Assembly (NCBI GenBank): GCA_958296135.2
Contig: CATQHZ020000001.1
Span: forward strand, 1,600,001-1,664,000
DNA: 64,000 nt
Direction of reading: 5' to 3'
Source of the DNA: an uncultured Poribacteria bacterium
GTDB taxonomy: Bacteria; Poribacteria; WGA-4E; WGA-3G
Shown: positions 18,991 through 46,810 of the stretch, piece by piece
How the letters are laid out: each line of letters starts with the position of its first letter
Position numbering within the stretch: the stretch's first letter is position 1
Translations under genes and position numbers: made by a program
Notes under the pieces: generated by a model
Database searches by the model: none
The model's input: the letters and a program-made list of their open reading frames with translations, nothing else
Told to the model about the DNA's origin: nothing

Positions 18991-21900
18991 ATGCGACACA
19001 TCAAACCCATCGTTTGGCTCATCTTTATCCTCTCCGGCGCGAGCGGCCTCATCTACGAAGTGATCTGGATGCGGCAACTCACGCTCATCTTCGGAAGCAC
19101 GGTCTTCGCCACTACCACGGTGCTAACCGCTTTCATGGCAGGTTTGGCACTCGGCAGCTTCTATTTTGGCCGGAAAATCGACGAAAGCGAGCAATCGCCC
19201 CTGCGGCTCTACGCGCTTTTAGAAGTCGGCATCGGTGTCTTCTGTCTCGTGTGGCCGCTCATTTTAGCGGCCCTAGGCGCGCTCTATGTCCTAATTCACC
19301 GCAACGTCACCTCCGAATTCTACACACTTTCGCTCATCCGATTCGTGTTGACGTTCGGGGTGCTCCTGATTCCGTCGACGTTGATGGGCGGTACGTTGCC
19401 GGTGCTGACGCGCTTTTTTGTGCAACGCTTGGAACAACTCGGTGCCAACGTTGGGATTCTGTATGCGTTGAACACGTTCGGCGCGGTCATCGGCTGTGTC
19501 GCGACTGGGTTCCTCCTGATCGAACGTCTAGGCATCCAACAGACACTCTTCGTTGGGATAGCGATTAATTTTGTCGTGGCAGGCGTAGCGGTGTTGCTGA
19601 CGCGGGCGAGCGGACAAGCCGCGCCTACCGGTAATCTTAAACGCGTCCACAAAAACGGAGATATCGGCGATACGGAGAGAGACATTGTTCACTCAGAAAC
19701 CCTCATCGAACGCCTTGCGAATGACAAAAAATTGGTTTTATGGGCGATTGGCATTTCAGGGTTCTGCGCGCTGGCCTATGAAGTCCTCTGGACGCGCATC
19801 CTCGTCTTCTTTTTGGGGAGCACGACGTATGCGTTTGCGACGATGCTGGCGGCGTTTCTGTTCGGCATCGCCCTCGGCAGCCTCCTGTTTGCGAGGTGGG
19901 TAGATAAACTCTCATCGCGCGCGATGAGCATCTTCGGCATTATCCAACTCGGTATTGGGTTCTTCGCGCTTTTGCTCATGCCTGCGTTCGAGGAGCTCTA
20001 CGGAATGAGCCGCGCGTTCCAATCCACCTTTGGCGGCGGTAGATTTTGGGCATTCTTCTCCTGCTTCCTCGTGATGAGCGTGCCGACGTTTTTGATGGGT
20101 GCCAGTTTCCCGCTGGTAACGAAGATTTATACGGGCAGTGCTGCCCAACTCGGCAGGAGCATCGGGAACGTTTACGCCGTGAACACGGTGGGAAGCATCC
20201 TCGGTTCGTTTTGCGCGGGGTTTGTCTTCATTCCGCTTTTGGGAATTCGGCCGAGCATTTTGTTGATGGTGGCATTGAACACGGGCATCGGATGTTTGCT
20301 CCTCTTCTTGCCGGTAGGCGCGGTTTCCAACCGCGCGCCTGGGCGGGCGTTCCTACAAGGGGCAGGCATCGCAATGCCGATTCTGAACGTAGGCCTGGCG
20401 GTAATTCTGCTGCTCACGGTAAATCAGCCGCTCTTCCTGAAGAGCGCGATTTTCAAAACGCAACGCCCCGGCGACACTCTTGTCGATTACAACGAAGAGG
20501 TGGACGCAACCGTCACCACGCTGAAGGATGACGAGGGTGTGTATCGGCTCTATGTGGACACGAATCAGGCGGCGGATGCCTCGCGATGGGATTCTCCCTC
20601 GCATCGGGTGATTGCGCACTTGCCGTTGCTTTTGCATCCGCGTCCGAAACGCGCGCTCGTCGTCGGGTTCGGGATGGGGCTCACCTCGCATTCCATCACG
20701 CAGCACGGGGTGCGCGTCGATGCGGTAGAGCTCTCCAGCGGCGTAATTGCCGCGGCGCAAAAGCATTTCACGCACGTCAATGGGAATGTGTTTGACAACC
20801 CGCTTTTCAACTATCGGCTCAACGATGGCAGAAACCACATCCTGATGACACAGGCGAAATATGATATGATTTCTACGGGCATCATCCATCCGCTTGTCAG
20901 CGCGGGGAGTTCCAATATTTACACCGCCGATTTTTATCGCTTGTGCAAACGGGTTTTGACAGCGGACGGGATTATGTGCCAGTGGGTGCCGTTGCATCGC
21001 CTGCCGGAGGCACACTACAAGATGATTGTGCGCACGTTCATCGAGGTGTTTCCGCACACGACACTGTGGTATAAATACACCCCCGATTTTGTCATCCTCA
21101 TCGGCACGCAGGAGCCGTTGACAATTGACTACAAAAACTTCATCGAACGCGCGCGAATAGCCAGCATCAGCGAAGGGCTCGCCGCCGATGATTTAGATGG
21201 CATGTCCTTGCTTGATTCGTTTATGATGGGACCGGGAGCAGTTCGCGAGTATGCTAGCACCGGACCCGTCCATACCGACAACCGCCCGCGCTTAGAATTT
21301 TTCAAAGGAGAGGCACTCGTCAATACGACAGCGCGAAACATCACCGGGATGGCGAAGTATCGGGAGCGTGTTACGCCGTATCTTACTAGTACCGGTGCGA
21401 CGTTGGATGAGAAAAAGGCGACGCGCCAGAGAATTGACACCTACTTTAACGCCACACAGAAGTTAATCCGAGGGCAAATTGCCTACGCTAACGCGCAGTA
21501 TGACACCGCCGCAGCCCTCATGAGCGAGGCTGTGGACATCAACCCCGTTGATGAAACGATTCGCTACAATTTCGGTGTTGTCGCAGGTTTAATTCGTGAG
21601 GACGAGCAGGAGGAACTCCGCCGACTTGAAGAGCAGGTGCAGCGTACTCTCGCGCAGAATCCTGACGACGTTCGCGGACATCTCCATTTAGCAACGCTCT
21701 ATGAAATGCGCGGCGAACTTGCGAAGGCAACGAACGAATTGGAAGTGGTGCTTCAGCGCGAACCGAATCGAGTTGCTGTCTATTTCCTCCTCGGCCCGCT
21801 CTACGAACGGCAGCAACGCTACTCGGAGGCACTCCGCACGTATGAACGCTTGGAACAGCAGGAGAGGCAGCTGCCCGCGCCTATTTTCGCGGCGATGGCG

Positions 21901-22291: not shown

Positions 22292-24379
22292 ATGTCTCAA
22301 GAAACTAGCGCGGGAGCATCTGCTTCCGCCACCTCATTTTTAAAACGCACCCACTACTGTGGTGCCCTTCGCCTCACCGATGCGGGTTCCCGCGCGCAAT
22401 TCAACGGCTGGGTGCAACGCCGCCGCGACCATGGTGGTGTCATCTTCGTTGATTTGCGCGACAGAACCGGCATCACCCAAGTTGTCTTCGATCCGCAGAT
22501 TGACGAGGCGGCACACGAACGTGCTAGTGCGGTGCGCAGCGAATTTGTGCTGAACGTCAGCGGCACCGTTCGCGAACGCGAACCGGGCGAACGCCTCTTT
22601 CAGGCAGCTGTCGCGCATCAAACTGAACTTGGCGAAGGCACCGTGTCTCCTGAATTCCGAGCCATGTTCGCCGGTGTAGACACAAAATACACGTTGTCTG
22701 ACGACATTACAGTCGCTGTCCGAGAGCCCGGTGTCCGGTGGCTGCTCACTGATGTGAAAAATAACCGCACTTATGAAATCCACCTAGCGGCGGTGCGGTT
22801 GGAAACCGCGCCGCCCGAGGAGAAGAGGCCTGTCTTAAACGTCTATCAGGGCACCGTGAATCCGGAACTCGCCACGGGTGAGGTTGAGCTCGCCGTGGAT
22901 TCTCTGAACATTCTGAATACGGCGAAAACGCCGCCGTTCCTTGTGGAAGACGACGTGGAAGTCGCCGAAGACATTCGGATGCAGTATCGGTTCATCGATT
23001 TGCGCCGGCCGGAGATGCAGCAGACGCTCGCGATGCGCCACAAAGCGGCACTCGCCGCACGCAACTACATGAACGAGCACGGCTTCCTCGAAATCGAGAC
23101 ACCTATCTTGATGAACAGCACCCCGGAAGGCGCGCGCGATGTCCTCGTGCCGAGCCGGCACTATCCCGGTAAATTCTATGCGCTCCCGCAGTCACCACAG
23201 CAGTTCAAGCAGATTCTGATGATGAGCGGCGTAGACAGGTATTTTCAGATTGCGCGATGCTTCCGCGACGAAGATACTCGGGCAGACCGGCAGCTGGAAT
23301 TCACGCAGCTTGACATCGAGATGTCCTTCGCGGATGTAGACAATGTGCTGGAAGTCACTGAAGGGCTCATGAAGCGGATATTTGAAGAGGCAGGCGGCAT
23401 TCCCGTTCAAACACCGTTCCTGCGGCTGCCTTATCACGAATCGATGGCACGCTTCGGTAACGACAAGCCGGATACACGATTCGGCATGGAACTGACAGCC
23501 CTTGGTGATGTCATGGCGGCCTCCGATTTTCAGGTGTTCAAGCGTGCGCTAGCAAGCGGCGGGCAGGTGAAAGCCATCGCTGTTCCAGGCGGCGCAGATT
23601 TCTCGCGCAAGGACATTGATGAGCTGACGAAGTTCGTCGGTATCTATCGCGCAAAGGGGTTGGCATGGGTAAAGGTTACCGCTGACGGTTTTTCATCCGG
23701 CATCGTCAAGTTTTTCAAGCCGGGACAGTTGGAGATAGCGCAGGAGCGGACCGGCGCGCAACCGGGTGACATCATGTTCTTCGTCGCTGACCGGGCGAAT
23801 GTCGTCGCCGATGCACTCGGGAACCTCCGGACGCATCTCGCGCGCAAACTGGACATGATTGACGAAACCCGCTACAATTTCCTCTGGATTGTCGACTATC
23901 CGCTCTTTGAGTGGAACGCCGAAGTACATCGGTATGAGCCGTTTCACCACCTCTTCACCGGCGCGACGGATGAGACAGTCGGCTTACTTGACACCGACCC
24001 GGGGAAAGTGCAGAGCCAACACTATGATCTGGTTTGCAACGGCTACGAAATCTGTAGTGGTAGCGTCCGGATCCACCGGTGGGATATCCAACAGAAGGTT
24101 TTTGACGTTTTGAAAATCAGTCCGGCGGATGTCAAAAGTCGGTTTGGGTATTTCATCGATGCGTTAGAATACGGCACGCCGCCGCACGCCGGCATCGCCC
24201 CTGGCTTGGACAGAATTGTTATGCTGATGCGCAACGAGGAGAACATCCGGGAGGTAATTGCCTTTCCGAAATCGCAGCAGGGACTTTGCCCATTGACGCA
24301 TGCTCCCTCTGTTGTCACGGATGAACAATTGGCAGAATTGTCCATCCGCGTGGATGCCCCGGTAGGCGCGGATGCCTAA
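22292..24379 (+). CDS. aspS: Aspartate-tRNA ligase (probably non-discriminating) with an ~87-aa insertion
   Basis: RRRDHGGVIFVDLRD, LPQSPQ.FKQ, CFRDED and PPHAGIAPGLDR motifs; His in DHGG. Confidence 0.96.
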   Translation: MSQETSAGASASATSFLKRTHYCGALRLTDAGSRAQFNGWVQRRRDHGGVIFVDLRDRTGITQVVFDPQIDEAAHERASAVRSEFVLNVSGTVREREPGERLFQAAVAHQTELGEGTVSPEFRAMFAGVDTKYTLSDDITVAVREPGVRWLLTDVKNNRTYEIHLAAVRLETAPPEEKRPVLNVYQGTVNPELATGEVELAVDSLNILNTAKTPPFLVEDDVEVAEDIRMQYRFIDLRRPEMQQTLAMRHKAALAARNYMNEHGFLEIETPILMNSTPEGARDVLVPSRHYPGKFYALPQSPQQFKQILMMSGVDRYFQIARCFRDEDTRADRQLEFTQLDIEMSFADVDNVLEVTEGLMKRIFEEAGGIPVQTPFLRLPYHESMARFGNDKPDTRFGMELTALGDVMAASDFQVFKRALASGGQVKAIAVPGGADFSRKDIDELTKFVGIYRAKGLAWVKVTADGFSSGIVKFFKPGQLEIAQERTGAQPGDIMFFVADRANVVADALGNLRTHLARKLDMIDETRYNFLWIVDYPLFEWNAEVHRYEPFHHLFTGATDETVGLLDTDPGKVQSQHYDLVCNGYEICSGSVRIHRWDIQQKVFDVLKISPADVKSRFGYFIDALEYGTPPHAGIAPGLDRIVMLMRNEENIREVIAFPKSQQGLCPLTHAPSVVTDEQLAELSIRVDAPVGADA

Positions 24380-32369: not shown

Positions 32370-35300
32370 AGCCGCCGGAGGAACAGCCTAAAATGCCTCG
32401 CATCTTCGATAACATCGGGCAGGCACTGCTGCCTGCACTCCGAGAAACGCTGAAAACCGCCACGCATGCAGACTTCTGTGTCGGCTACTTTAATCTGCGC
32501 GGATGGAAGGCACTCGCCGATTCTATTGAAACATGGGATGGCGGCGAAGGACGCTGCTGCCGACTCCTCGTCGGGATGCAACGTTTGCCGCAAGAAGAAC
32601 TCCGCCACGCCAAACGCCTCCGTAAACAAGACGACAGAATTGATAACCAGACTGCACTCCGTCTCAAACGGAAGTTGGCAGAAGAATTCCGGGAACAACT
32701 CACTGTCGGTGTCCCGACGCGTGAGGATGAGGCAGGGCTCCGACAATTAGCACAGCAGATTCGGGACAAAAAGGTTCAGGTGAAGTTGTTCCTTCGGCAT
32801 CCGCTCCACGCAAAACTCTACCTGCTTCACCGTCCCGATCCGATTACGCCGATTGTCGGCTACCTCGGCAGTAGCAACCTCACCTTTGCAGGACTCTCCA
32901 AACAAGGGGAGCTCAACGTTGATGTCCTTGATGCCGACGCGTGCCAAAAGTTAAAAGATTGGTTTGACGCGCGCTGGACAGACCGGTGGTGCATCGATAT
33001 TTCTGCCGAACTGGTTGAAATTATTGAGGAGAGTTGGGCGCGCGTGGAACGCATCCCGCCGTATCACATCTACGTCAAGATGGCGTATCACCTCTCACAA
33101 GAAGCACGACTCGGATTGACAGAATTCCAGATCCCGAGCGAATTTCGGGACAAACTGTTTGAATTCCAGGCTGCGGCGGTGCAAATTGCGGCGCATCACC
33201 TCAACAGACGCGGCGGCGTGTTAATCGGCGACGTTGTCGGACTCGGCAAAACAGTGATGGGCACCGCGCTCGCGCGCATTTTTGAAGACGATTACGGGCT
33301 TGAAACGCTTATCATCTGCCCAAAGAACCTCGTCAAAATGTGGGAGGCGTATCGCGAGGAATATCACCTGCGCGGCAGCGTGCTTTCGCTGAGCCGCGTC
33401 ATCCAAGAGTTACCGAACCTGCGACGGTATCGGATTATCCTCATTGATGAAAGCCATAACCTGCGAAACCGCGAGGGAAAACGCTATCGCGCGATTCAGG
33501 AATACATCCACGAAAACGATAGCCGCGTCATCCTGCTCTCCGCAACGCCTTACAACAAAACCTACCTCGATCTCTCCAGTCAACTCCGCTTGTTTGTTGA
33601 GGAGGACCGAGACTTGGGCATCCGACCGGAACACTACCTCCGTGAGTTAGGCGGCGAGACTGAGTTCCTCCGCAAGCACCAAAGCGGCGTGCGCACGCTA
33701 CCCGCTTTTGAACAGAGCGAGCACCTTGACGATTGGCGCGAATTGATGCGTCTCTATCTCGTCCGTCGGACACGCAGTTTCATCATGGAAAACTACGCCG
33801 AGACAGATGCCGATACGGGCCGGAAGTTCCTCGCTTTTCCCGGTGGCACGCGCTCCTACTTTCCCATGCGCGTGCCAAAAACGGTGAAGTTCACCATTGA
33901 CGACGAAAATCCCGACGATACCTACGCGCAGCTATATTCGTCGCGCGTCGTCCAAATCGTTAGCAACTTGCAACTCCCGCGGTATGGACTGGCAAATTAC
34001 ATCGTTGACGCGCCAGAGGGAGCGCGGTTGAAAACCGCGCCTACCGAAGAGAAGGACTTGGAACCGCTGACACCGGCGGAGAAAACGCAATTGGACAACC
34101 TCTCCCGCGCAGGACAGCGGCTCATCGGTTTCAGCCGAACCAATCTTTTCAAGCGGCTTGAGAGTAGCGGACAGGCGTTCCTCCAATCGGTGGAACGCCA
34201 CATTCTGCGCAACTACGTCTATCTCCACGCGATTGATAACGGCGAACCGCTTCCCATCGGTGGACAAAGTAGTGAGATGCTCGATGCGCGTTTCTACGAT
34301 GAGGATGTGGATGCCGTGGAGGGAGTAGCCGACCCGGTTGATAACGAGAGTGACGTGGATATGGATAGTGCGTGCTTGGAAAGCGCGCCTACGGGACATC
34401 AGTCCGGTGAATTCAAACAGCGCGCCGCCGAAATCTATCACCTTTACACCACGAGATATAAAAGTCGGTTTAAGTGGGTGCGTTCCGAGCTCTTTCGTCC
34501 CTCTCTCCGGAAAGCACTCGCCGACGATGCAAGCGCGCTGCTCACTATCTTGCAAGACTCCGGTGTTTGGCATGCCGAAAACGACGAGAAACTCAACGCG
34601 TTGGCGGCACTCTTAACCGAGACTCATCCGAATAATAAGGTGCTGATTTTCACGCAGTTTGCGGACACGGTGCGCTATCTGAAAACGGCACTCGTGTCGC
34701 GTGGCATTTCGCGGATTGAAGGAGTAACCGGTGATTCCCCAGATCCGACTGGGGTGGCGTGGCGGTTCAGTCCTGTGAGCAATGAGAAGCGCGCCGCTGT
34801 TTCGCCACAAGAGGAGCTGCGGGTGCTCATCAGCACGGATATTTTGAGTGAAGGCCAGAATTTGCAGGACTGCGCGATTGTCGTCAACTACGATCTGCCG
34901 TGGGCAATTATCCGCCTCGTCCAACGCGCTGGGCGTGTGGACAGAATCGGGCAGACAGCTGAGCAGATTTCGTGCTATTCGTTTCTGCCGGCTGATGGCG
35001 TGGAACGCATTATCAATTTGCGCGGACGCGTCCGGGAACGCCTCCGCCAAAATTCGGAGATTGTCGGCACGGACGAGGCATTTTTTGAAGATGACGCGGA
35101 CGAGAACGCACTCTTGGCGTTGTATCACGAGCGGGCAGGTTTGCTGGACGATGAACCCGACAACGATGTCGATCTTGCCTCTTACGCGTATCAGATCTGG
35201 AAAAATGCGATGACGCGTGAGCCGCGCCTAGAACGCGTCATCCCTGAACTGCCGGCCGTCGTCTATTCAACGAAGGCGCACGATGCTGTCGAAGGCGCGC

Positions 35301-43756: not shown

Positions 43757-44881
43757 ATGAAAGCACTCTTTAAAAGCCTCACGGTGGTGATACTCGCTGT
43801 CCTTGCGGCCGGTTTTGGCATTTGCATCTATATCCTCCAGGCACCGTCGGTTGCGCAACCGGGGCCGCCAAAACTGCAGATCCACACGCGGACAGCGTTG
43901 CGCGGCAGACCGGCGGTGAACTCCAAGCCGCTCGCCTATACGAAAGATGTCTATCGGTTTAGTTTAGCGCGGCAGCATATCAGCAACTTGAACAGCGGTG
44001 AGTTCTCGCCGAAATTACTGTTCAGCGCGGCCTTGGCGCGGCGCGCGACGTTGGAAGCCAAACGGTTGGACGCGGAATTGCGAAAGGGCATCGATTGGGA
44101 GAAAATGTTCGCCGATTTGACAGAGAACGTTCGGTTCGATGCCCGTTCGTCTGACTTAAAAGTGTTGCTCAGCGGGAAAGAGTGGCATCTCATCGACGGT
44201 TCAGGCGCGATGTATACGGTAGTCCGAGTCCAAAATCGGCTGAATGTCTATCTGCCGAATCTCAAAGAGGCATTTGAGACAAACAAAGGCCGCCTCTCGA
44301 AGAATATTGAAGTTTCTGTTGAAAAAGCCGGAAGGCAATGGCTGATCAGAGACGTAGGCTTTCAGCAGGCGTATACCGTAAAACTTGGCGGGCAAAAAGG
44401 TGATGAGAAACTGAACGTCTTCCAGCAATCGAAGGTTGAGATTCGTCACTTGCTGTTTGATGCGGATTTGCTATCGCAGCCTGCGTTGACAGATGGCCTT
44501 CTGAAGGCATCTTCGCGGCACTATATTTCGGCAGCACTACGCTCCGAGTTTGCAGAACAAAAGATCGCGCTGACCCGAAAGGCGAAGTTGTCGGTAATCA
44601 AGGAAGATAGGGAATGGCTGATAACCGATGCCGGCCAGAAATATCGTATCCGTTTGGAAGACGCACCGCAAGACGGAGGAAAAACCTCAAGGTTGAAGGT
44701 ATTCCTCGGCTTGGATAGCGAATGGCTTCGCGTGCGGGTTGATGATGAGCTGCAAGGTTGGGTGCAGCGGGAGCGCGGGACGGTTTTCCAGCCGCCGCCG
44801 CTGCCATTGAGCTCACGTCAACAGGCAAAAGCACGACTGCTAGTGCTGATTGACAGAGTGAAAGAGAAAATAGGGCAATGA
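43757..44881 (+). CDS. Membrane-anchored SH3b-like protein interrupted by three copies of an ~80-aa module
   Basis: N-terminal TM; SH3b-like pieces ALRGRPAVNSKPL / SKVEI / LG..SEWLRVRV...GWV separated by W.I.D..Y..LNV(Y/F) modules. Confidence 0.65.
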   Translation: MKALFKSLTVVILAVLAAGFGICIYILQAPSVAQPGPPKLQIHTRTALRGRPAVNSKPLAYTKDVYRFSLARQHISNLNSGEFSPKLLFSAALARRATLEAKRLDAELRKGIDWEKMFADLTENVRFDARSSDLKVLLSGKEWHLIDGSGAMYTVVRVQNRLNVYLPNLKEAFETNKGRLSKNIEVSVEKAGRQWLIRDVGFQQAYTVKLGGQKGDEKLNVFQQSKVEIRHLLFDADLLSQPALTDGLLKASSRHYISAALRSEFAEQKIALTRKAKLSVIKEDREWLITDAGQKYRIRLEDAPQDGGKTSRLKVFLGLDSEWLRVRVDDELQGWVQRERGTVFQPPPLPLSSRQQAKARLLVLIDRVKEKIGQ

Positions 44882-46080: not shown

Positions 46081-46810
46081 GGACGGTTTAAGACAGCAAA
46101 CCTCGCCCTACGGACTAAGGGCCCCTTCTACCGTAGCGCGAGGGAAAACCTGTCCCCCGGTAGGAGAGACCTCCCGGTCTCGATGTTCGGGACCTGTCAC
46201 CCGCTATCCCTCTCGATAGACCGATGCCCGGCGCAGCACAGTGGACATCTCTGCAGCGAGGCGGCAGAGATGACAAAGTTTCGGCGTAACGGCCCGCGCC
46301 CTACGGACTAAGGGGCCCTTTTTACCGACGGGCCCTTTTCACCGTAGCGCGAGGGCCCGGCGATCGCGAATCGCCGAGGGTTCCCCTCGCGATCCTCCTC
46401 GCTAGACCGATGCATAGCGCGGCACAGGACCGCGCCCTACGGACTAAGGGGCCCTTTTTACCGACGGGCCCTTTTCACTGACGGGCCCTTTTCACCGTAG
46501 CGCGAGGGCCCGGCGATCGCGAATCGCCGAGGGTTCCCCTCGCGATCCGCCTCGCTAGACCGATGCATGGCGCGGCACAGGCCCGCGCCCTACGGACTAA
46601 GGGGCCTTTTCACCGATGCATGGCGCGGCACAGGCCCGCGCCCTACGGACTAAGGGGCCTTTTCACCGATGCATGGCGCGGCACAGGACCGCGCCCTACG
46701 GACTAAGGGGCCCTTTTTACCGATGCATGGCGCGGCACAGGCCCGCGCCCTACGGACTAAGGGGGCCTCTTCACCGTCGCGCGAGGGAAAACCTGTCCCT
46801 CGCGGGTGTC
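46077..46810. repeat. Large mosaic REP/REPIN (BIME-like) array
   Basis: About seven copies of GCCCTACGGACTAAGGGG; four tandem ~53-bp units CCGATGCATGGCGCGGCACAGG(c/a)CCGCGCCCTACGGACTAAGGGG at 46560-46775; no unique spacers. Confidence 0.85.

Follow-up and report, generated by a model that had tools for sequence, protein, structure and literature searches.

A domain-sized insertion in the anticodon-binding loop of the sole aspartyl-tRNA synthetase of a Poribacteria genome, with a palindromic repeat nested inside it

Aminoacyl-tRNA synthetases are among the most conserved enzymes, and it is unusual for the sole aspartyl-tRNA synthetase (AspRS) of an organism to accommodate an entire domain in the loop that reads the anticodon. 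This is the situation in the stretch of DNA analysed here (64,000 nucleotides of an uncultured Poribacteria bacterium, contig CATQHZ020000001.1, the window in what follows). Its gene aspS (22292..24379, plus strand) codes for a bacterial-type AspRS of 695 aa with a GAD domain, the sole AspRS gene of the genome; the OB-fold loop that joins strands 4 and 5 is lengthened in it by 87 residues (aa 100-186, nt 22589-22849). This insert is a copy of a protein module that is found in many other proteins of the phylum, and it contains in turn a short palindrome of the repetitive extragenic palindromic (REP) type. The account that we favour comprises an undescribed domain family, a single in-frame gain by AspRS, vertical descent, the later arrival of the REP and, as a guess, a role in docking; taken as a whole we give it a probability of roughly three in four. 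Whatever its role, the insert amounts to a natural test of how much the anticodon-reading loop can bear.

The enzyme is encoded by one uninterrupted open frame, and three Pfam domains were recognised over the cut-off: the OB fold (PF01336), the class II core (PF00152, aa 226-662) and the GAD insertion (PF02938, aa 416-509). The match to PF01336 (aa 37-99) covers positions 3-62 of the 75 of the profile, i.e., it ends before the profile does. The NCBIfam model for bacterial AspRS, TIGR00459, recognised the protein in two pieces (model positions 2-83 and 80-582; 643.8 + 73.3 bits, 719.2 with the neighbours in frame), well above the curated cut-off of 373.85, with the match interrupted by the insert at model positions 80-83. 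AspRS chains from the Protein Data Bank (PDB) aligned in the same manner to aa 17-101 and 186-260. In the numbering of the Escherichia coli enzyme (1C0A) the insert falls between residues 79 and 82, and in 4WJ3, the non-discriminating AspRS of Pseudomonas, the chain positions aligned to aa 101 and 186 of our protein overlap (89-92). The coordinates given in a preliminary description of this DNA, 22589..22849 within the anticodon-binding domain, are in exact agreement with these Pfam, TIGR00459 and PDB alignments. In the E. coli and yeast AspRS-tRNA structures this loop participates in anticodon reading.

Upstream of the insert, strands 1-4 of the OB fold (aa 1-99, 22292..22588, plus strand) were delimited by PF01336 and by an AlphaFold2 (AF2) model, with strands at E19-32, E35-42, E45-51 and E71-80 in model numbering (the AspRS residue is the model residue plus 15). 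The inserted module itself (plus strand), delimited by BLASTP, hidden Markov models (HMM), AF2 and hhalign, consists of a strand, two helices and four strands, and its residues W150, D154 and Y161 correspond to the W, D and Y that are invariant in the family. Downstream come the rest of the loop and OB strand 5 (GTVNPELATGEVELAV..., 22850..22969, plus strand), placed by AF2, PDB alignment and ortholog alignment. In the flanking motif N-P-x-L-x-T-G-E-x-E, the N, L, T, G and last E did not vary across 28 orthologues, both those that have the insert and those that lack it. The stretch with the insert was also found unchanged in three contig sets, probably from the source sample and hence not independent support, and a diverged relative among the DNA contigs has 202 letters in place of 133 of this stretch; a search of sequencing runs for RNA returned none.

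The similarity of the insert to the modules of a protein encoded downstream in the window (43757..44881, plus strand), already pointed out in the preliminary description, was borne out by profile comparison. This 374-aa protein, which belongs to no Pfam or NCBIfam family, starts with a hydrophobic signal or anchor segment and contains three modules in tandem on the plus strand, delimited by HMM and alignment: module 1 (44012..44254), module 2 (44255..44425), without the N-terminal strand and first helix, and module 3 (44447..44707), which is the top BLASTP match of the AspRS insert (E 4e-4, against 0.41 for module 1) and enters the hhalign comparison that follows. To avoid circularity, the profiles compared were built separately, one from nine AspRS inserts of other genomes with that of the window excluded (alignment A3) and the other from the three repeats of the 374-aa protein (A4); hhalign aligned them over 72 columns with a probability of 98.1% and an E-value of 1.3e-13. 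An iterated HMM search over all the stop-to-stop frames of the genome converged on 10 included modules in seven frames, with E-values per module of 1e-8 to 1e-23 (3.4e-23 for the insert in the window), and an eleventh, weaker match appeared in an eighth frame. Judging from these sequence comparisons, the AspRS insert and the modules of the 374-aa protein are homologous.

In an alignment of 20 modules (A1) the residues W51, D55 and Y62 are invariant and L71, within a closing L-x-V-Y, is conserved in at least 90%. The AF2 model of a lone 75-aa AspRS module, taken from another genome of the sample (G014), had a mean predicted local confidence (pLDDT) of 94.0 and a predicted TM score (pTM) of 0.79, and showed a strand, two helices and four strands, with no long helices of transmembrane type. 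When the N-terminal domain of the AspRS of the window was modelled, the blocks of the module reached pLDDT values of 90-95 and OB strands were predicted on both sides of it. The models describe a self-folding domain of about 70-75 aa with the order strand-helix-helix-four strands, from a family that appears to be undescribed. Pfam-A (2025 copy) gave no match to the module at E<=0.01, the best value over 20 members being 0.025 (Vault), and in NCBIfam 20.0 the module itself had no match, while the values for three longer proteins that contain it were all E>=0.02. Among PDB sequences a profile search returned no clear match (best E 0.011). At the structural level, Foldseek found nothing in the PDB at E<=1e-3 (best frataxin, E 0.57, TM 0.31), and the best VIA-align scores against 48,161 chains (Z 4.4; AFT2, kinase N-lobes, KA1) are within the range of common arrangements. 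Since both kinds of structural match are weak, we have not named a fold family. MftB/PqqD clusters of the ESM Atlas were considered as relatives and dropped, with a best score of 0.84 (under the lead level of 0.9); the order of their secondary structure elements is presumably also unlike that of the module. The prediction of a two-copy complex from A1 scored 0.14 and 0.02, for a mark of 0.42, and weighs neither way. We found no literature on the insert, the module family or Poribacteria REPs in a search that left most subscription journals outside.

The family is large. The A1 profile retrieved, from 1.84 billion representative proteins, 2302 at E<=1e-3, 650 at E<=1e-10 and 40 at E<=1e-30, with lengths from 111 to 5820 aa and up to 31 module stretches in a single protein; a description of the family would thus annotate thousands of proteins from an uncultured phylum of sponge symbionts. 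We have scanned with Pfam 37 of the 150 module proteins listed, and families could be named in 21 of the 37 and none in the other 16. The partners include pentapeptide repeats, HAMP/cNMP, Wzy_C with TPR, SpoIIE with dCache, cohesin/dockerin, caspase, metallophosphatase, PD40 and UPF0182, and two of the proteins are AspRS fragments. Within the genome of the window the eight hosts are AspRS, the three-module 374-aa protein, a DUF4861 lipoprotein, a double-VWA protein with two tandem copies, a doubled YibE/F membrane protein, a histidine kinase, a Wzy_C protein and a CxxCH-motif protein. The module of the DUF4861 host, where Pfam matches two separate stretches and the module precedes the larger of them, is the closest relative of the AspRS insert in the genome (38% identity). 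Export or membrane signals (a signal or anchor helix, a lipobox, CxxCH haem motifs, a sensor loop between membrane helices), read by eye from the sequences, are present in seven of the eight hosts and not in AspRS. The module would then occur both in a cytoplasmic enzyme and in exported proteins, and the corresponding claim of the preliminary description stands as an inference from such signals. Regarding its taxonomic range, the module was detected (E<=1e-5) in 58 of the 61 Poribacteria genomes sampled, with 7-24 matches in each; the three genomes without it are of families f5 and f6 (we designate as f1-f8 and g1, g8 and g11 families and genera of this sample). It was found as well in one of 101 genomes of another phylum, reached via a record labelled Syntrophobacter, and one representative module protein is labelled Deltaproteobacteria. 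From these matches the family appears greatly enriched in Poribacteria, without being restricted to the phylum.

A comparison of orthologues reveals the history of the insert in AspRS. All 41 genomes of the order, including that of the window (G000; 5.2 Mb, 94.7% complete), have an AspRS, and 34 have the insert: the 25 genomes of f1, G000 among them, the six of f2 and the three of genus g8 of f3. The remaining seven (all five of f4 and the two of g11 of f3) have frames of 588-605 aa without it, with the match split at aa 99/186. Alignment of 36 AspRS genes placed 34 of 34 inserts at one site, RER-x-E/P-G | module | G-T-V/I-N-P, so that the presence/absence alignment proposed in the preliminary description gave a single orthologous site. 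Neither the five deeper Poribacteria lineages sampled (f5-f8) nor the solved AspRS structures, as judged from PDB sequence alignments, have the insert, and together with the seven insert-free genomes of the order they dispose of the possibility that it is a universal AspRS subdomain. A word-based search with the insert region, which favours AspRS by construction, produced 197 candidates of which 62 matched, all of them AspRS (412-758 aa). In a tree of 41 AspRS sequences (FastTree, LG+gamma, 585 columns, insert columns removed, rooted on f7/f8), all the insert-bearing sequences are in one clade with a support of 1.0, and f4 is its sister.

Once in place, the insert has been under purifying selection. 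The ratio of non-synonymous to synonymous substitution rates (dN/dS, Nei-Gojobori) of the insert was 0.06-0.31 in those 15 pairs, of 17, that had unsaturated dS, and in other parts of the enzyme it was 0.00-0.20 (OB part) and 0.02-0.21 (catalytic part). We have set aside the dS of the G000 insert against its congeners G001 and G002 (1.14, with flanks at 0.35-0.55), where an indel of 22 aa makes the alignment unreliable. Eleven positions are invariant among nine AspRS inserts sampled, seven of which are not invariant family-wide. The charge is also characteristic: the net charge of the AspRS modules is -13 to -2 (median -8, n=61), and that of modules in other hosts is -10 to +6.

The last hairpin loop of the module, between its strands 4 and 5, contains the second, much smaller insertion. 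Relative to most other genera there are twelve extra codons (LAAVRLETAPPE, 22784..22819, plus strand), evident from the ortholog alignment, from the comparison of DNA within the genus and from a drop in pLDDT, which is 62 for the 10-residue block with the REP peptide in the AF2 model of the N-terminal domain. The loop has 18 residues in the window and 5-6 in orthologues outside genus g1. The palindrome within these codons, GGCGGTGCGGTT-GGA-AACCGCGCCGCC (22789..22815), has a 12-bp stem with one G-T pair and was identified by searches for repeats in the genome. The consensus of its family is ccnGTAGGCGCGGTTTcAAACCGCGCCTACcGg, and the 27-nt pattern occurs in the genome at 128, 299 and 562 sites with up to 2, 4 and 6 mismatches, compared with three sites at up to 6 mismatches in 5 x 1 Mb of shuffled sequence. 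The aspS copy fits the pattern within 6 mismatches, and its central 15-mer has 17 exact copies in the genome, the other 16 being flanked by REP sequence; by simple arithmetic about 0.01 occurrences would be expected by chance in 5.2 Mb. The REP-derived peptide that the preliminary description had seen inside the insert is accordingly confirmed, in frame. The family has the high copy number of REPs, whereas the aspS copy lies in frame within a gene and not in an extragenic location.

A REP at this site was seen in genus g1 only, and the site differs among close relatives. The REP is present in the aspS of G001, from the same genus, where 24 nt agree with the consensus apart from a single change, and the aspS of G002, also of the genus, is without 21 nt of it and keeps GCGCGG at the junction. 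Since G000 is sister to G001 plus G002 in the AspRS tree, the REP would probably predate the genus and would have been partly lost in G002, with independent gains as the alternative. Among AspRS sequences from metagenomes, P0168-P0171 have one REP (P0169 reads EARLETAPTE, the exact translation of the consensus), P0173 has two, P0176, P0181, P0182 and P0185 have none, and P0179 has at the REP site an unrelated tandem of two SGPEVPPT. Other insertions are seen elsewhere in the module. The AspRS of G001 and G002 (L037, L038) and of P0168-P0185, though not that of the window, have 22-24 aa (…LLAWSVRSSDGEVLFQSD…) between the two helices, which we rejected as repeated DNA because G002 has a single copy of it; another insertion, of 10 aa and after helix 2, is found in G004 and P0189. 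As for other module hosts, the DUF4861 protein (locus L031) has an ARLKSAPT REP peptide (G000:C1:2658860-2658886) some 15 residues past its module, and the long hairpin loop of module 3 of the 374-aa protein (window 44650-44690) reads RLEDAP, with DNA that fits the REP core at 13 of 18 positions. The latter could be the decayed remnant of an old REP, in the loop position that corresponds to that of the REP in AspRS.

The genome-wide count suggests that in-frame REPs are common in this genome. Of the 562 REP-like sites, 104 (that of aspS included) are at least 30 aa inside open frames of at least 300 aa, a count made on stop-to-stop frames and not on gene calls, so that some of the frames are spurious. 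The reading phases of 110 frame-site pairs were x-A-R-L-x-x-A-P-T in 53, V-G-A-V-S-N-R-A-Y-like in 36 and R-R-G-F-Q-P-R-like in 21. In the commonest phase an intact consensus would give a TAG stop, and the copies inside genes have an altered arm. The window has two further REPs (20314-20340 and 34018-34044) in the linkers of genes confirmed by Pfam, one with MFS, spermidine synthase and TPR and the other with PLD and SNF2 helicase domains. Two Y1_Tnp matches were found in the genome; within 2.5 kb, one has no REP at all and the other is flanked by a different family of palindromes, and because neither is flanked by the family of aspS we tie no transposase to it. This second family (GCATGGCGCGGCACAGGACCGCGCCCTACGG; G000:C1:4789445 and 4792484) flanks that one of the two RAYT-like Y1_Tnp genes, and occurs twice in the window (46417-46435 and 46676-46694). 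A separate observation on the genome is that contig C2 (143,886 bases) has a G+C content of 0.368, against 0.544 for the main contig, and could represent a plasmid, a phage or a foreign sequence that entered the bin.

With regard to the tRNA system in which the enzyme works, the genome has one AspRS, LysRS and GatB, and no asparaginyl-tRNA synthetase (AsnRS) over the curated cut-off. Because the AspRS is the sole one, AsnRS is missing and GatB is present, the enzyme of the window is presumably non-discriminating, of the kind that participates in the indirect pathway to Asn-tRNA, described in general terms in parts of PMC2330236 and PMC9976931. None of the 41 genomes of the order gave an AsnRS over the same cut-off, whether its AspRS bears the insert or not, and the control genomes did; the whole order seems to make its Asn-tRNA by the indirect route.

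The sequence of events that we consider most probable begins with one copy of the module recombining in frame into the strand 4-5 loop of the OB fold, in what would be the ancestor of three Poribacteria families, and continues with vertical inheritance. The insert would be translated with the rest of AspRS and would remain in the mature protein, standing out as a separate and strongly acidic knob. Since the loop residues on both sides of it remain conserved, the enzyme presumably still works, with anticodon reading intact. Later, in genus g1, the REP palindrome would have entered the last hairpin loop of the module in frame, adding about 7-12 residues to what is predicted to be a poorly ordered loop, and the site seems to have been gaining and losing sequence since. 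Beyond the observed anatomy, homology, age, purifying selection and REP identity, our best guess is that the insert is a protruding acidic accessory domain that may serve as a protein-docking surface and not as a tRNA binder; the uniform acidity of the AspRS modules argues against simple tRNA binding. There are also observations that weigh against a dedicated role. In the AspRS tree the insert-free g11 is nested within the insert-bearing clade, with a moderate support of 0.80-0.83, for which one gain followed by one loss or allele replacement in g11 would be the simplest reading; AspRS thus functions in its absence, and any claim that the module is essential loses force. As AsnRS is missing with or without the insert, the latter does not track the non-discriminating lifestyle either. 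Finally, a dN/dS below 1 can arise merely because a misfolding insert is costly to an essential enzyme.

A tolerated passenger is nearly as likely as a docking surface. By this we mean a chance insertion in a permissive surface loop, selected only for folding and solubility, which would persist by virtue of its close-lying ends and independent folding. The clean absence in g11 fits this well, as do the dN of the insert, higher in all 17 pairs than that of the OB part or the catalytic part, and the tolerance of the same loop to further nested insertions of 7-50 residues. Retention in 34 of 41 genomes across three families is harder to reconcile with neutrality, and so are the consistent acidic charge and the seven of 11 invariant positions that are peculiar to the AspRS inserts; we regard it as a serious contender that falls short of an even chance. 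A more general version of docking, in which the module mediates protein-protein or self association in all its hosts, AspRS included, would explain its promiscuity (it occurs in many host architectures that are unrelated, and in tandem arrays that reach 31 stretches) and its presence within other domains, e.g., DUF4861. That all hosts share one partner is nevertheless unlikely when most of the hosts in the genome look extracytoplasmic and AspRS is cytoplasmic, and we hold this possibility to be somewhat doubtful.

The location of the insert invites another interpretation, namely that the loop responsible for reading anticodon position 36 is given another shape by the module, which would allow the sole AspRS to charge both tRNA-Asp and tRNA-Asn. 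The specificity of non-discriminating AspRS resides in the anticodon-binding domain, according to the sections of PMC9976931 concerned with it, and a genome with one AspRS, no AsnRS and GatB would be the appropriate setting. However, AsnRS is equally absent from the seven genomes with an insert-free AspRS, and the strong acidity of the module disfavours contact with RNA, which makes a specificity device quite unlikely. The preliminary description had also proposed that the module could be selfish, and at first sight a mobile DNA element that spreads in frame, like the palindromic elements of Rickettsia, would account for its presence in at least eight open frames of the genome, at times inside other domains. 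The comparison of the copies speaks against this option. A sensitive blastn search of the genome with the 261-nt insert gave 150 non-self hits, of which 142 correspond to nt 199-230 of the insert (the palindrome) and eight are scattered with E>=0.3, with none on other copies of the module. At the protein level, the copies in other hosts share only 23-36% identity with the AspRS reference copy, the AspRS site is a single orthologous one in three families, and dN/dS is below 1. From these comparisons the selfish reading seems largely refuted, with a very low probability left to it, and only the small REP would behave as repeated DNA. We give even less credit, practically none, to the idea that splicing removes the insert from the mature enzyme, as an intein or similar element. 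The insertion is indeed in frame in an essential enzyme, but there is no Hint or intein family in the Pfam results, and the ends are wrong: the boundaries are G|E(R/L)LF ... VYQ|G in 34 of 34 insert-bearing orthologues, with E or D and not C/S/T as the first residue and VYQ followed by G in place of HN followed by C/S/T. With 73-87 aa it is, to our knowledge, also smaller than any known intein.

A bolder extension of the docking idea, which we put forward as an improbable though attractive guess, is that the W-D-Y module could be a portable plug-in docking unit tying the sole AspRS to a phylum-specific partner or structure, and that in parallel REPs could routinely add peptides of the ARLETAPT type to some hundred proteins, in their surface loops and linkers. 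With a nested REP that differs between close relatives, the present case extends in-frame palindromic elements beyond Rickettsia and to an essential gene. If this is true, REP insertion would be an ongoing source of variation in protein length, even in essential genes.

Two kinds of known system resemble what we describe here, extra domains in synthetases and in-frame palindromic elements. Like lineage-specific insertions or appended domains in aminoacyl-tRNA synthetases, e.g., the GAD domain of bacterial AspRS, the module is a folded domain acquired in frame, restricted to a lineage and inherited vertically, in a core enzyme that retains its motifs. The CAAD domain of cyanobacterial synthetases is another of these lineage-specific additions. 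Unlike GAD, the Poribacteria module is in the OB strand 4-5 loop and not in the catalytic domain, and unlike the known synthetase domains it belongs to no described family and is common to many extracytoplasmic proteins. The best sequence match of known structure, the non-discriminating AspRS of the transamidosome (4WJ3), is likewise a bacterial-type AspRS with GAD, and the Poribacteria genome has GatB and no AsnRS; unlike the Poribacteria enzyme, 4WJ3 has no insert. As to the palindrome, it is similar to the REP/REPIN sequences associated with RAYT (Y1) transposases in being short and imperfect, with hundreds of copies and a conserved GTAG end, in a genome with two Y1_Tnp matches. It departs from the classic ones in that 104 of 562 sites are well inside open frames of at least 300 aa and not between genes, and in that neither Y1_Tnp gene has the aspS family within 2.5 kb. 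Fusion in frame with host genes is documented for the palindromic elements of Rickettsia and for intragenic ERIC/MITE in the relevant portion of PMC10969869. The mode is the same here, a repeated palindrome adding in frame a conserved peptide, x-A-R-L-E-T-A-P-T in aspS and in many other frames; the likeness that we claim is one of mode, and the sizes differ, with about 150 bp in Rickettsia, as given in that portion of PMC10969869, against about 27-36 nt (7-12 residues) in aspS. Thus, both kinds are already known, the second through that same part of PMC10969869, and what is new is the domain family, its place in the OB loop of the sole AspRS, the REP nested within it and the apparent frequency of in-frame REPs.

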